27,181 nucleotides of DNA from Candidatus Pacearchaeota archaeon (GCA_018304175.1 JAGVWT010000013.1:1-27181), one strand, 5' to 3'; shown: positions 22,822 to 27,006, counted from the stretch's first letter. The notes: generated by a model not told the origin, from the letters alone. A program made the numbers and translations.

Positions 22822-22849
22822 AGTTCGTTAAAAGCCTGTTAGTAGAAAT
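22822..22849 (+). repeat. Proximal attI-like site (site C)
   Basis: AGTTCGTTAAA-AGCCTG-TTAGTAGAAAT. It has a cassette-type right arm but lacks the TCGGR left arm and hairpin body, contains G|TT at the inferred crossover, and lies 115 bp from the integrase start. Confidence 0.7.
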
Positions 22850-22915
22850 TTTTGCTACGCAAAAACTCTTCGCTCGATTAATTTTAGTTATACCATCCCC
22901 CGCCCGAAGGCATGC

Positions 22916-23395
22916 CTACTTAGAAAGAATTAGCCCACCACAATAATTTTGTCTGAAAACTTCCTTTCCTTGATAAAGAATTTGTTCTGTTCCTTTAAAA
23001 TCTTTAATATCTCCATCGCTCGAATCTTTATATTCCCATTCTCCCTCATGGAAGTTTTCAGGACCTCTAAATGGTCTCGTTACTTCAACCAATTTTAATG
23101 CTTTTTTGAGAAATGTAAATGTCTGTTTGGCAAAATCTCTATTTCCTATATTTTCCTGCGTCATTCCGCCACTATATGCCATTGCCCAAATTGGCTGACC
23201 TTGGAATCTTACATATTCTTGTCCCGGCGCCATAAAATATCCGACATAGCTGTCCCTATATTCCCAAGGTCCTTCTATAAATTCTAATTCTTTAAAGCCC
23301 GGTCTCTGTGGCAGAATTTCTTTTCCATCTCCTGCCCACGCTTCAGATTTTGCCTTTATCAAAAATCTGGCTAATTCTTCAAGGTTAACTTCCAT
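22916..23395 (-). CDS. Cassette 0 cargo: DUF5680-like protein
   Basis: FLIKAK...YRDSYVG...GQE.V..QGQPIWAMAYSGG...RPFRGP...GEWEY pattern; own TATA 22 nt upstream. Confidence 0.8.
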   Translation of the reverse strand: MEVNLEELARFLIKAKSEAWAGDGKEILPQRPGFKELEFIEGPWEYRDSYVGYFMAPGQEYVRFQGQPIWAMAYSGGMTQENIGNRDFAKQTFTFLKKALKLVEVTRPFRGPENFHEGEWEYKDSSDGDIKDFKGTEQILYQGKEVFRQNYCGGLILSK

Positions 23396-23510
23396 AAATT
23401 TAGTATAAAGTATTAGTTTAATAAGTTATCGGCATGCCTTCCCCCACCCTTAAAAATTGCTAAAATTAATCTCGCTCGCCTCGTTGCACTCTCAAAATCC
23501 TTCGGATTTT

Positions 23511-23541
23511 TCGGGTCTACTAACAGACATTAGTTTCAATT
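23511..23541 (+). repeat. Cassette junction D
   Basis: TC-GGGTCTACTAA-CAGACA-TTAGTTTCAAT-T. Confidence 0.85.
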
Positions 23542-23696
23542 CTGGGTTTACCTTACAGGTACGCTTCGCTACCGAAAATTCTAATGTTCTTATCTTCGTT
23601 AAAATCATAAAGAAAAAACTCACAAAATTACTTCATAACTTACCTAACAAAATTTTAACGAAATTGTTGAAAAATAAAAAATATAGAACGAAAGAT

Positions 23697-23966
23697 TTAT
23701 TCTTTTAGTTTCTTTTCCAACTCTCCAGAATTGTCTTGATTTTTTAGAATGTCCAACTTTTCATTAAAATATGCTCTTGCATATCTTACTCCATCTGCTA
23801 AAACTCCTGCGGTTAGCAATGAACCTCCACCAATCGCATATGTTTCAGTGTTGTCCATTCCAAACATATTTAGCATATAAGATGCTCCAATCAATCCAAT
23901 TCCAATTCCTTTCGCTACTGATTCGAGTGGAAAACCTTTGTATTCTGGTAAATGATTTTTTGTCAT
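23697..23966 (-). CDS. Cassette 1 cargo: small two-TM hypothetical protein
   Basis: 89 aa with Gly-rich hydrophobic helices; TATA (TTTATAAA) 23 nt upstream. Confidence 0.65.
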   Translation of the reverse strand: MTKNHLPEYKGFPLESVAKGIGIGLIGASYMLNMFGMDNTETYAIGGGSLLTAGVLADGVRYARAYFNEKLDILKNQDNSGELEKKLKE

Positions 23967-24134
23967 ACAATAAAGAATAAATCAATACTTTATAAATCTT
24001 TCGTTTATTTTACCACTTGAAAGTTAATAACTTATTTTTCAACAACTACGATAACAACGAATTTTCGGCAAACCCAGAACTCGAGATTTTTCGGCTTCGC
24101 CGAATGTTGCACTAAAATCTCGTCCTCATTTCAT

Positions 24135-24165
24135 TCGGAGAAACTAACAGCGATTAAGTGAAATT
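24135..24165 (+). repeat. Cassette junction E
   Basis: TC-GGAGAAACTAA-CAGCGA-TTAAGTGAAAT-T. Confidence 0.85.
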
Positions 24166-24205
24166 CACTCCGCCGCCGCAAACATTATAAAGTTGTTCAA
24201 TTTAA

Positions 24206-24748
24206 ATGATAATTATGGCAAACATTCCTGAATGGCAATATCCCTTATACAAAGAACCCGATAAAGTTGCCTACGCAATTTTAGAAAAAATAGGAAAATC
24301 AAAATTATATCCTAAACTTGTCGGCTCAAAAGAGGAAATAAATGATTTTCTAAAATTGCTTGTTGTCAGCCAGAAGATGAAATATTATCGTAAGTTTCGG
24401 GATATTGCCTTGAATGAGTTCAAGAAAAAAGAGGCAAACATTCCAAAAATCTTGGACGAAAGCAAAAATCTTGAAATTCCAAGAGGCATTGATGAATCTT
24501 GGGCAATTTTTATTCAGGATAAAAGACTCTGCAAGTTAATGGATAAATTTCAAGATGCCAAGATTCAATTCATCGGAAATGATGATGAAGTTTCTGAATT
24601 CTTTGTTAGATTTTTGCTTTCTCAACTGCTACAAGATTGGAGAGGCCCTTTAATGGCTGTTCTTTTGGAATGTTTGCAGGATAAAAAAGTAAAGATTGCT
24701 AAATTGAACAACTTATTGAAGATTTGGGATTATACTAAAGTATTCTAG
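24206..24748 (+). CDS. Cassette 2 cargo: hypothetical helical protein with internal duplication
   Basis: 180-aa ORF filling the cassette; LVGSKEEINDFLKLLVVSQ vs FIGNDDEVSEFFVRFLLSQ. Confidence 0.75.
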   Translation: MIIMANIPEWQYPLYKEPDKVAYAILEKIGKSKLYPKLVGSKEEINDFLKLLVVSQKMKYYRKFRDIALNEFKKKEANIPKILDESKNLEIPRGIDESWAIFIQDKRLCKLMDKFQDAKIQFIGNDDEVSEFFVRFLLSQLLQDWRGPLMAVLLECLQDKKVKIAKLNNLLKIWDYTKVF

Positions 24749-25632: not shown

Positions 25633-25697
25633 GTCGCCAAAAAGTGAACTTGCTCCGCTTCGCTACGCACCCCGCTGCACTCTCCTCCTTTCAGTCG

Positions 25698-25728
25698 TCG
25701 GGACAGATAACAAGGGTTATATTCAATT
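25698..25728 (+). repeat. Cassette junction G
   Basis: TC-GGGACAGATAA-CAAGGG-TTATATTCAAT-T. Confidence 0.85.
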
Positions 25729-25796
25729 TTGTATTTGAGAACAAAGAAAGAGTCCCTTTAGAAACTTTTATAATATTCTTAATTTCATCTATTTAT

Positions 25797-26237
25797 ATGA
25801 CAGAAAAATATCAAAAAATCACTGTTGGAGGATTGCTTGTAAAAAATAATAAAGTTCTTGTTGTTAGAAGATCTTCTGCTGAACCCTACTTAACAGGATA
25901 TTACGAATTACCTGGAGGAAAAGTTGACTTTGGAGATCATCCAAAAGAAAGTCTTGAAAGAGAGTTTATGGAAGAAGTAAATCTCAAAGTCATAGCGTTA
26001 CATCCATATCGAGTATTCACTTACATTTCTGATAAAGGAAATCGTCATACTGTTGAATTAGTATATTTTGTTGAATTAGATGACGATACTAAAAATATTA
26101 AATTAAGTGAAGAACATGACGATTTCAAATGGATTTCAGCAGAAGAAGTCGATGATTTACAAATTAGTGATGAAATTAAAATGAACATTAAAGTTGGTTT
26201 CAAAGAAATTGAAGACTGGGCTCTTTCTAAAAAATAG
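25797..26237 (+). CDS. Cassette 4 cargo: NUDIX hydrolase (MutT-like); true start ATG 25797, not 25644
   Basis: Nudix box GGKVDFGDHPKESLEREFMEEVNL; LSEEHDDFKW; TATA TTTTATAA 24 nt upstream of ATG 25797. Confidence 0.93.
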   Translation: MTEKYQKITVGGLLVKNNKVLVVRRSSAEPYLTGYYELPGGKVDFGDHPKESLEREFMEEVNLKVIALHPYRVFTYISDKGNRHTVELVYFVELDDDTKNIKLSEEHDDFKWISAEEVDDLQISDEIKMNIKVGFKEIEDWALSKK

Positions 26238-26322
26238 ACTCCCTTCGGTCGAGATTAATAATAGTTCTCAAATACAAAACTCTGAAATTTCCCTTCGGAA
26301 CGTTGCACTAAATTTCAGCCCT

Positions 26323-26353
26323 TCGGAGAATATAACAGGAATTATACGAAATT
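26323..26353 (+). repeat. Cassette junction H
   Basis: TC-GGAGAATATAA-CAGGAA-TTATACGAAAT-T. Confidence 0.85.
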
Positions 26354-26405
26354 GAAAGTCAGCCCTACCAAAATGTTTTTAATATCTAACTGAAATCAAA
26401 TAACT

Positions 26406-26921
26406 ATGGCACACATAAATATTGAAATCAAAGCAAAATCAAACAATCAAGATGCGATAAGAGAAATCTTAAAATCAAAGAATGCCGACTTTAAAGGTGT
26501 TGATCATCAAATTGATACATACTTTAAAGTTAATAATGGTAGACTAAAATTAAGGGAAGGAAAAATTGAAAATCACTTAATTCATTATCAAAGAGAAAAT
26601 AAAGAAGGTCCAAAACAATCAGATGTAACTTTGTTTAAATCTGACCCCAAATCTTCGTTAAAAGAAATTTTAACCAAAGCATTGGGAATTTTAGTTGTAG
26701 TTGATAAAAAGAGAGAAATTTATTTTTTTGATAATGTGAAATTCCATATTGATATCGTTGAAGATTTGGGGACATTTGTTGAGATTGAAGCCATTGATAA
26801 TGATGGCACGATTGGGAAAGATAAATTACTTGAACAATGTCAATTTTTCCTTGATTTATTTAAGATTTCTCAAGAAGATTTGATTTCAGTCTCTTATAGC
26901 GATTTATTATTGCAAAAATAA
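26406..26921 (+). CDS. Cassette 5 cargo: CYTH-domain protein (class IV adenylate cyclase-like)
   Basis: NIEIKAK (ExExK), QIDTYF, LKLR, VVVDKKREIY, KFHIDIVEDLGTFVEIE. Confidence 0.92.
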   Translation: MAHINIEIKAKSNNQDAIREILKSKNADFKGVDHQIDTYFKVNNGRLKLREGKIENHLIHYQRENKEGPKQSDVTLFKSDPKSSLKEILTKALGILVVVDKKREIYFFDNVKFHIDIVEDLGTFVEIEAIDNDGTIGKDKLLEQCQFFLDLFKISQEDLISVSYSDLLLQK

Positions 26922-26975
26922 TGGGCTGACTTTCAACTCAAGAGGACGCTGCGCTTTCGCTCCACTTCGTTACGC

Positions 26976-27006
26976 TCGGGACACATAACAAGGGTTAGTT
27001 TCAATT
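26976..27006 (+). repeat. Cassette junction I
   Basis: TC-GGGACACATAA-CAAGGG-TTAGTTTCAAT-T. Confidence 0.85.

Follow-up and report, generated by a model that had tools for sequence, protein, structure and literature searches.

An integron-like cassette array beside a Xer-like recombinase gene in DPANN archaea, with site arms that pair across cassettes

The window analysed here is the entire 27,181-bp contig G000:C6 of a host genome (G000) of 544 kb with 33% G+C that is 88% complete. The locus of interest has the order Xer-like tyrosine recombinase gene, attI-like site, seven cassettes and class I lysyl-tRNA synthetase gene. Its cassettes end in short arms that pair with each other across the cassette and not within the junctions, which raises the question of how such units are recognised and moved, and whether the array belongs with integrons, with Xer/dif systems or with neither. 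The locus is an integron-like platform of Woesearchaeota/Pacearchaeota-type DPANN archaea, and we consider it fairly probable that a dedicated Xer-like recombinase captures genes there by inserting circular one-gene cassettes at the attI-like site beside its own gene. Full-text searches of the literature gave no description of such a cassette system.

Read on the plus strand, a cassette consists of a right arm (TTA-N5, where N5 is variable), AA, the right half of an outer stem, the promoter region and gene, the left half of the outer stem, a C, an insert, a left arm (N5'-TAA) and a 6-nt spacer. Five of the six cassettes between 22839 and 26994 open with 8 nt that are exactly reverse-complementary to nt -14 to -7. 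The match between first 8 nt and left arm is perfect in cassette 1 (22839-23529; TTAGTAGA and TCTACTAA), cassette 2 (23530-24153; TTAGTTTC and GAAACTAA), cassette 3 (24154-24836; TTAAGTGA and TCACTTAA), cassette 4 (24837-25716; TTATCTGT and ACAGATAA) and cassette 5 (25717-26341; TTATATTC and GAATATAA), and has three mismatches in cassette 6 (26342-26994; TTATACGA and ACACATAA). None of the six junctions is self-complementary, their two arms differing at 3–4 of the five variable positions. An initial annotation of this DNA had listed the same cassette boundaries, arms and spacers, and re-derivation returned identical coordinates and sequences. Its estimate of 1/1024 for a chance match per cassette was too optimistic, since the arms are drawn from a limited set (TTATATTC, TTAGTTTC, TTATGTCT, TTATACGC and a handful more). 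When the right and left arms that were observed are re-paired at random, 2.3 of 47 pairs match perfectly, so that about 5% is realistic; by simple arithmetic, five perfect matches in six cassettes at this rate have a probability of about 2e-6.

For replication outside the window, about 750 kb was fetched around matches to the junction pattern and around orthologous recombinases. Neighbouring junction pairs defined by their sites were perfectly matched across the cassette in 16 of 47 cases (2.3 expected), as against 4 of 88 within junctions. Mutual information per position was 0.17–0.45 bit across cassettes and 0.04–0.10 bit within junctions, clearly higher across, as the proposed covariation of N5 and N5' had predicted. 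A set of 55 cassettes from relatives was then located by the outer stem alone, with arms not used; their arms were perfect in 30, had one mismatch in 5 and at least two mismatches in 20, and only 1 of the 55 junctions was perfect. Arm pairing across cassettes is confirmed as a real, statistically solid and general property.

The outer stem is a second, cassette-specific perfect stem of 9–18 bp that sits directly outside the arms at a fixed offset of 2 nt. Its right half (9–18 nt) begins with TT and mostly ends in a GC clamp, and its left half ends in AA. The syntax of a perfect arm, AA and a stem of at least 9 bp at offset 2 was found 32 times in real sequence and once in the reversed control. 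A finder for arms and stems with a loose filter did not discriminate (130 matches in reversed sequence versus 126); only the fixed-offset syntax does. Related outer stems vary by changes matched on both sides (TAATTTTTAGGGC, TAATTTTTAGAGGC and TAAATTTTTGGGC, each with a perfect partner). The inserts (45–65 nt) fall into a few conserved families that have the motif GYTGCRCT and the end CGGR in common and turn up again in unrelated cassettes and genomes. Coverage of the junction modules in metagenome contigs is 10–100 times that of the cassette bodies, and every junction is a point at which contigs break.

If a cassette circularised, its ends would form a site reading outer stem L, AA|C, a 45–65-nt insert ending in CGGR, N5'TAA, spacer, TTAN5, AA and outer stem R. 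As a single strand, this site would fold into a long branched hairpin with the 8-bp arm pair as apical helix and the spacer as loop. Circularised cassette ends are indeed predicted to form a branched hairpin of -14 to -29 kcal/mol, with the arm helix and the spacer as an apical loop of 4–6 nt, compared with only -8 to -18 kcal/mol for the junctions as arrayed. To have called the site inside out, as the initial annotation did, was fair: the crossover lies in the apical loop of the folded circle, and the arrayed junction folds poorly.

The predicted folds are also strongly strand-dependent, the bottom strand of the reconstituted site being the more stable one in 54 of 55 cassettes. The 53 inserts contain 58 copies of CTTCG and two of its complement, CGAAG. 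On the top strand, triloops with a closing stem of at least 3 bp have the sequence TTC (34) or TGC (14); read on the bottom strand these are GAA and GCA, and GNA triloops give very stable DNA mini-hairpins. This asymmetry of the junction module favours a folded single-strand substrate, as a duplex-only site offers no obvious reason for it. Although unproven, single-strand exchange is the most likely mechanism, on the basis of bottom-strand stability and the asymmetry of the GNA triloops.

The same loops invite another explanation, namely a role of the pairing at the RNA level, for example in stems for processing or stabilisation or in UUCG tetraloops of array transcripts. CCTTCGG, a C(UUCG)G tetraloop in top-strand RNA, is present in 19 of the 53 inserts, yet GCTTCGC and the TGC loops match DNA GNA triloops of the other strand and not UUCG tetraloops. 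Site orientation is fixed and cargo orientation is not (two of the six cargo genes, those of cassettes 1 and 2, are antisense), the upstream stem half appears to precede the likely cassette promoter, and cassette turnover at the DNA crossover point is seen directly. We regard a role confined to RNA as extremely improbable.

Where the crossover lies is indicated by the attI-like site and by cassettes found in more than one context. The attI-like site (GTTCGTTAAAAGYCTG|TTA) is about 130 nt upstream of the recombinase start codon; its conserved left half, GTTCGTTAAAAGCCTG, occupies 22823-22838 on the plus strand, with the crossover after G22838. The motif GTTCG..AAAG.CTG|TTA lies 123–150 nt upstream of the start codon in 17 orthologous loci, and is followed by a different sequence in each. 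Conservation extends up to ...AAAG(Y)CTG, and the sequence is variable from TTA onward. The spacer AGYCTG is kept in 17 of 17 loci, a count to be read with the fact that the pattern used to find them includes AGYCTG. The same cassette start was found in two or three contexts in nine cases, and in eight of these homology begins exactly at TTA; three of the eight have one copy abutting attI, and the same cassettes occur both at attI and within arrays elsewhere. A variant of cassette 5, 91% identical and likewise carrying a NUDIX gene, stands behind other upstream sequence in metagenome contigs of three runs, with the break at 25716/25717. The earlier proposal of a crossover between the arms, immediately 5′ of TTA, is borne out by the context comparisons, the attI loci and this break. 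These alignments place the exchange at the 3′ edge of the 6-nt spacer, and the |TTA crossover would correspond to bottom-strand cleavage at N5'TAA|, the polarity expected for a tyrosine recombinase acting on the arm helix.

A route consistent with this position would be as follows. The bottom strand of the folded circle would be cut at N5'TAA| (on the top strand, spacer|TTA) and exchanged with the bottom strand of attI (TAA|CAGRCT), and the exchange of one strand would be resolved by replication. Integration would linearise the site at its apex, leaving the hairpin halves at opposite ends of the cassette. Arms and outer stems would then pair across the cassette and not within a junction because linearisation occurs at the hairpin apex. 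That this is a true single-strand, structure-specific, apex-split system run by a Xer-derived enzyme without the IntI domain, in which archaea either arrived at the integron principle independently or preserve a stage between Xer/dif and IntI/attC, is a possibility that we hold only tentatively.

An alternative account is classical double-strand Xer-type recombination at dif-like cores, in the style of integrative mobile elements exploiting Xer (IMEX) or of pdif modules. Here the enzyme would bind duplex arms around a 6-bp overlap and exchange both strands; the circle site would be symmetric because the enzyme is a homodimer, and the hairpins would have no role. The enzyme is closest to XerA and is without the IntI insertion, and the core N5TAA-6-TTAN5-AAT has the 11-6-11 layout of dif described for archaea (PMC8371274). 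A third of the cassettes are without arm pairing, and spacers strictly follow neither neighbour, as would happen with two-strand exchange and segregation of heteroduplex. However, independent binding of the arms predicts consensus arms, neither cassette-specific complementarity nor a unique outer stem of 9–18 bp. The six cassette spacers (CAGACA, CAGCGA, CAGGGC, CAAGGG, CAGGAA and CAAGGG) and that of attI differ from those of their partners, which would hinder branch migration, judging by the biology of Xer and Cre, and the attI spacer has never been exchanged for a cassette spacer in the 17 loci. A duplex substrate also fits poorly with a junction module so strongly strand-asymmetric, with its GNA triloops on one strand. 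Taken together, double-strand exchange appears unlikely.

Several observations weigh against capture through a folded single strand, and the spacers are among them. The initial annotation had them tracking the type of left arm; the same 3′ module keeps the same spacer in three cases and carries three different spacers in two others, so spacers do not consistently remain with the upstream cassette. Once integrated, the hairpin cannot fold locally, leaving the route of excision problematic, and no excised circle, empty site or clean single-cassette deletion was seen in the assembled contigs of four groundwater/soil runs. (Joints in these contigs link similar inserts or replace cargo, and speak neither for nor against excision.) The enzyme is without the IntI domain that reads extrahelical bases of a folded attC. 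Among the 55 stem-located cassettes, the 20 with non-matching arms have a perfect outer stem, and cassette bodies that are homologous can differ by a swapped left arm, right arm or insert. One body with the stem TCGTCGTGT was found with three different left arms; different right arms are carried by homologous bodies in cassette 2 of the window versus genome G221 and in the TTTGAGATTTGGG stem family, and different inserts in L053 versus L060. The claim that cassettes move as intact units consequently stands for the majority but not for these 20 or for the swapped modules. The simple capture model does not account for this re-assortment of arms, inserts and bodies, which may stem from recombination between homologous stretches of the conserved inserts or from a further point of exchange, at AA|TT and AA|CT. 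Finally, the outer stems have no wobble pairs or mismatches and end abruptly, and for such stems a recent or templated origin fits as well as selection does.

The last point leads to a further alternative, in which the inverted repeats are scars of cassette making: the cargo would have been captured in the loop of a pre-existing hairpin element (an empty cassette), or the upstream stem copied from the 3′ flank of the gene, and the arms would pair merely because the empty element was a palindrome. Besides the perfect, abrupt stems without wobble pairs, this has in its favour the existence of short gene-less units of 90–160 nt and several features of the window itself: in cassette 1 the stem has a 3-nt loop and another inverted repeat encloses the gene, the cassette 2 frame is found with different cargos, each flanked by an additional inverted repeat, a 13-bp inverted repeat (24887-99 and 25599-611) is nested in cassette 4, and pairing is lost in the distal cassettes 6 and 7. 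The proposal accounts for the origin of the repeats but not for their fixed syntax (the 2-nt AA offset, the stem base clamped by GC, and the AA|C that follows the left stem), and it leaves the strand-specific mini-hairpins unexplained. It is compatible with a functional hairpin rather than exclusive of one. As a complete account of the repeats, we find it distinctly unlikely.

Along the window array, cassettes 1–5 are intact, arm pairing is lost in cassette 6, and both stems are lost in cassette 7. Under capture at attI through a folded strand, pairing would be lost in old, distal cassettes. Across loci, perfect pairing is found in 6 of 9 cassettes near attI versus 5 of 14 further off, a weak trend in which some false positives are counted. 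At one orthologous locus (L083/L090; G061:C1:36543-37376), the recombinase gene is a pseudogene with 14 in-frame stops, and the three cassettes beside its attI still have perfect arms and outer stems of 13–16 bp.

In cassette 1, the outer stem (22849-22865) closes on a 3-nt loop. The cargo, a DUF5680 gene on the minus strand (22916-23395), lies in a side branch between the copies of a 12-bp inverted repeat (22876-87 and 23460-71). The stem on its 3-nt loop resembles an empty cassette, and the side branch (22876-23471) also holds two GGCATGCCT palindromes. Cassette 2 has its outer stem at 23540-49 and 24070-79, an insert at 24080-24139, and a cargo open reading frame of 89 aa on the minus strand. 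Its frame is conserved in genome G221 with a different cargo gene, and several further cargos are present in metagenome contigs. In another genome (L054:8663-9407), a 141-nt 5′ part and a 123-nt 3′ part of cassette 2 are 92% conserved and the cargo gene differs. The cargo in the window is flanked by further inverted repeats (23664-74 with 24035-45, and 23572-81 with 24059-68).

The outer stem of cassette 3 (24164-79 with 24749-64) contains an internal mismatch block, and the cargo is a 180-aa open reading frame. Cassette 4 (stem 24847-59 with 25636-48) carries a gene for an S-adenosylmethionine (SAM)-dependent methyltransferase. Most of this reading frame is flanked by a perfect 13-bp inverted repeat, 24887-24899/25599-25611 (AATAATATGTTCC / GGAACATATTATT); the nested repeat is built like the start of a cassette (TTATTAAG AA stem ... 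stem C), and the right copy belongs to the coding sequence. A 16-bp stem (25727-42 with 26264-79) encloses the NUDIX hydrolase gene of cassette 5, and a perfect stem (26352-65 with 26923-36) encloses the gene for a CYTH-domain protein in cassette 6.

Cassette 7 starts at 26995 on the plus strand with TTAGTTTC AA TTGCTCGGCGGCGGC and runs off the contig end at 27181. A longer contig of the same strain (L116:1-1700) continues the window past this point with a 148-aa gene, a decayed 3′ module and the class I lysyl-tRNA synthetase gene. The decayed module, GAGTATAA CAAGAA TTAATTGC, is a copy of a module like that of cassette 5. Neither a stem partner nor an arm partner for the start of cassette 7 was found in its 3′ end on this contig, and the partner that had been predicted there, with GAAACTAA as the arm, did not materialise. 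The terminal TTAATTGC may represent the original right half of an empty attI.

Upstream of the crossover, an inverted copy of the attI arm (CAGGACTTTTAAC, 22785-22797, plus strand) pairs with 22827-38 in the predicted fold (z = -5.5). A hairpin at attI was rejected as a universal feature, as the pairing extends to the crossover in only 5 of 15 loci. An arm-like box, GGCATTGTTAAAATT (22770-22784), lies about 55 nt upstream of the attI crossover and reads G(G/T)CGTT..TAAAATT in orthologous loci; as a possible accessory binding site, it would have a counterpart in the direct repeats of attI1.

The recombinase itself (282 aa; 21859-22707, minus strand) is transcribed away from the array, and its gene adjoins one for an archaeal histone. 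It carries the Pfam domains Phage_integrase and Phage_int_SAM_4, scores just below the cut-off of the NCBIfam model XerA_Arch (NF040815; 217.8 bits versus 220) and well below that of the IntI model TIGR02249 (180 bits versus 265), which it matches in two stretches only (profile positions 4-178 and 239-314). Among solved structures, its best relatives are XerA proteins (4a8e and 5hxy). Against VchIntIA, residues 185-203 of the query face chain residues 183-242, twenty residues against about 60, so that about 40 residues of the IntI-specific region are missing; judged by these alignments, the IntI-specific insertion is absent. The N-terminal SAM_4 domain and the C-terminal ...SPL tail align with IntI. 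No IntI above the cut-off was found in control genomes.

Is this enzyme the housekeeping Xer of its host? Seven of 84 high-quality genomes of the family, including G000, have this enzyme type, one copy being a pseudogene. The array enzyme is a dedicated paralog rather than a housekeeping dimer resolvase, because the five relatives with a complete enzyme of this type also have a second Xer-like gene (38–42% identity). No second Xer gene was found in G000, a genome 88% complete. A tree separates the array enzymes, as a clade with 100/100 support, from the family's commoner Xer-like genes. To label all distant Xer-like matches as housekeeping proved partly wrong, as one subclade (L055/L097/L106/L111) is itself linked to arrays with another attI. 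In this second clade (38–42% identity; L055:5896-7700, L106, L111 and L097), the attI reads ...CCAATATG|TTAGTTGC or ...CTTATG|TTGC, and the ...ATATG|TT site precedes first elements shared with arrays of the window's clade. A further tyrosine recombinase of the host genome (L002; G000:C1:987-1826), is 31% identical over the catalytic domain and has a CxxC...CxxC zinc ribbon at its C terminus. It is not Xer-like, and another element probably uses it as its integrase.

How far, then, does the array resemble an integron? The recombinase gene diverges from a conserved attI, which is followed by a co-oriented array of mostly one-gene cassettes; the crossover N|TTA is comparable to G|TTRRRY; the cassette sites vary in sequence and are apparently defined by structure; relative to the integrase gene, the folding strand seems to be the bottom one; and assemblies break at the array. 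In contrast, the IntI-specific insertion is missing from the enzyme, whose scores group it with XerA. Between the boxes resembling R'' and R' there are 4–6 nt and no L''/L' hairpin, the long stems are found outside the boxes, and the site is split on integration at the apex rather than at the base. A canonical attC parse, taking the ...AAC end of the left stem as R'' and GTTA... as R', was rejected, as it yields only the AAC/GTT pair and no L''/L' stem. Ghaly et al. (2022; PMC9668308) described archaeal integrons and integrase-less attC arrays and tested Nanoarchaeota attC sites, which are canonical R''-L''...L'-R' hairpins; unlike these, the present hairpin cannot fold locally in the array. 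The system is an integron by function and not by membership, with the IntI insertion absent and no attC fold found.

Xer/dif systems (archaeal XerA; PMC8371274) share with the array what appears to be the same enzyme family, inverted arms ending in TAA/TTA around a 6-nt spacer, and cleavage expected at the spacer edges. The array differs from them in having many tandem sites (seven junctions and attI) as opposed to one per chromosome, arms at one junction that are not inverted repeats of each other, a conserved, structured insert of 45–65 nt with outer stems, and an enzyme that is a paralog beside a second Xer-like gene in relatives. A parallel to a folded substrate is offered above all by CTX-phi, an IMEX element whose folded single strand forms the attachment site. 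As proposed for the array, a Xer-type enzyme acts on a hairpin from one DNA strand and one strand pair is exchanged; elements also accumulate in tandem at one site. IMEX elements use the host XerCD and the chromosomal dif, without a dedicated recombinase or attI, whereas the array is linked to a dedicated paralog and has an attI of its own; they are also phages or islands and not one-gene cassettes with cassette-specific stems. The pdif modules of Acinetobacter plasmids are likewise gene modules bounded by Xer-type sites, with inner arms that are inverted copies across the module, but their sites alternate in orientation (C/D, D/C), unlike the co-oriented sites here, and they come without a dedicated recombinase, attI or hairpin module. 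IMEX elements and pdif modules have no more than single features in common with the array.

The combination of recombinase, attI and co-oriented array is present in at least five fetched relatives and in 23 species-level loci, and all junctions are on one strand, both in the window and in relatives. The junction pattern CGGR-N5-TAACA-N4-TTA-N5-AATT matches 23 of 401 genomes of the same order and was not found in the reversed control. The nearest public records are metagenome-assembled genomes of Woesearchaeota, Pacearchaeota or Nanoarchaeota, and the public sequencing runs containing the stretch are labelled groundwater or soil metagenome. In public metagenomes the recombinase clade runs to more than 120 clusters with at least 59% identity, all of them labelled just XerD or generic tyrosine recombinase, and the best 120 homologues of the recombinase are all in its own clade. 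Given the size of the clade and these labels, many such arrays are probably unannotated. Many public contigs end 60–280 nt past the recombinase gene, because the variable, repeat-rich array breaks assemblies.

Should the proposed mechanism hold, capture of gene cassettes would not be tied to the IntI insertion or to the canonical attC fold, and a Xer-like enzyme, dif-like cores and cassette-specific hairpins would suffice for it. This would bear on how integrons arose from Xer systems, and would provide a mechanism for the exchange of accessory genes in DPANN archaea, which have small genomes with otherwise few mobile elements. The locus would also offer a compact pair of recombinase and site for studying structure-specific recombination.

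A scan of the contigs of G000 found junctions on no contig other than the window. Contigs C2 and C6 of this genome start with an identical 60 nt, and further overlaps of contig ends, as reverse complement or direct copy, are found between C10 end and C12 start, C3 end and C4 end, and C14 end and C16 start. These overlapping contigs could probably be joined.

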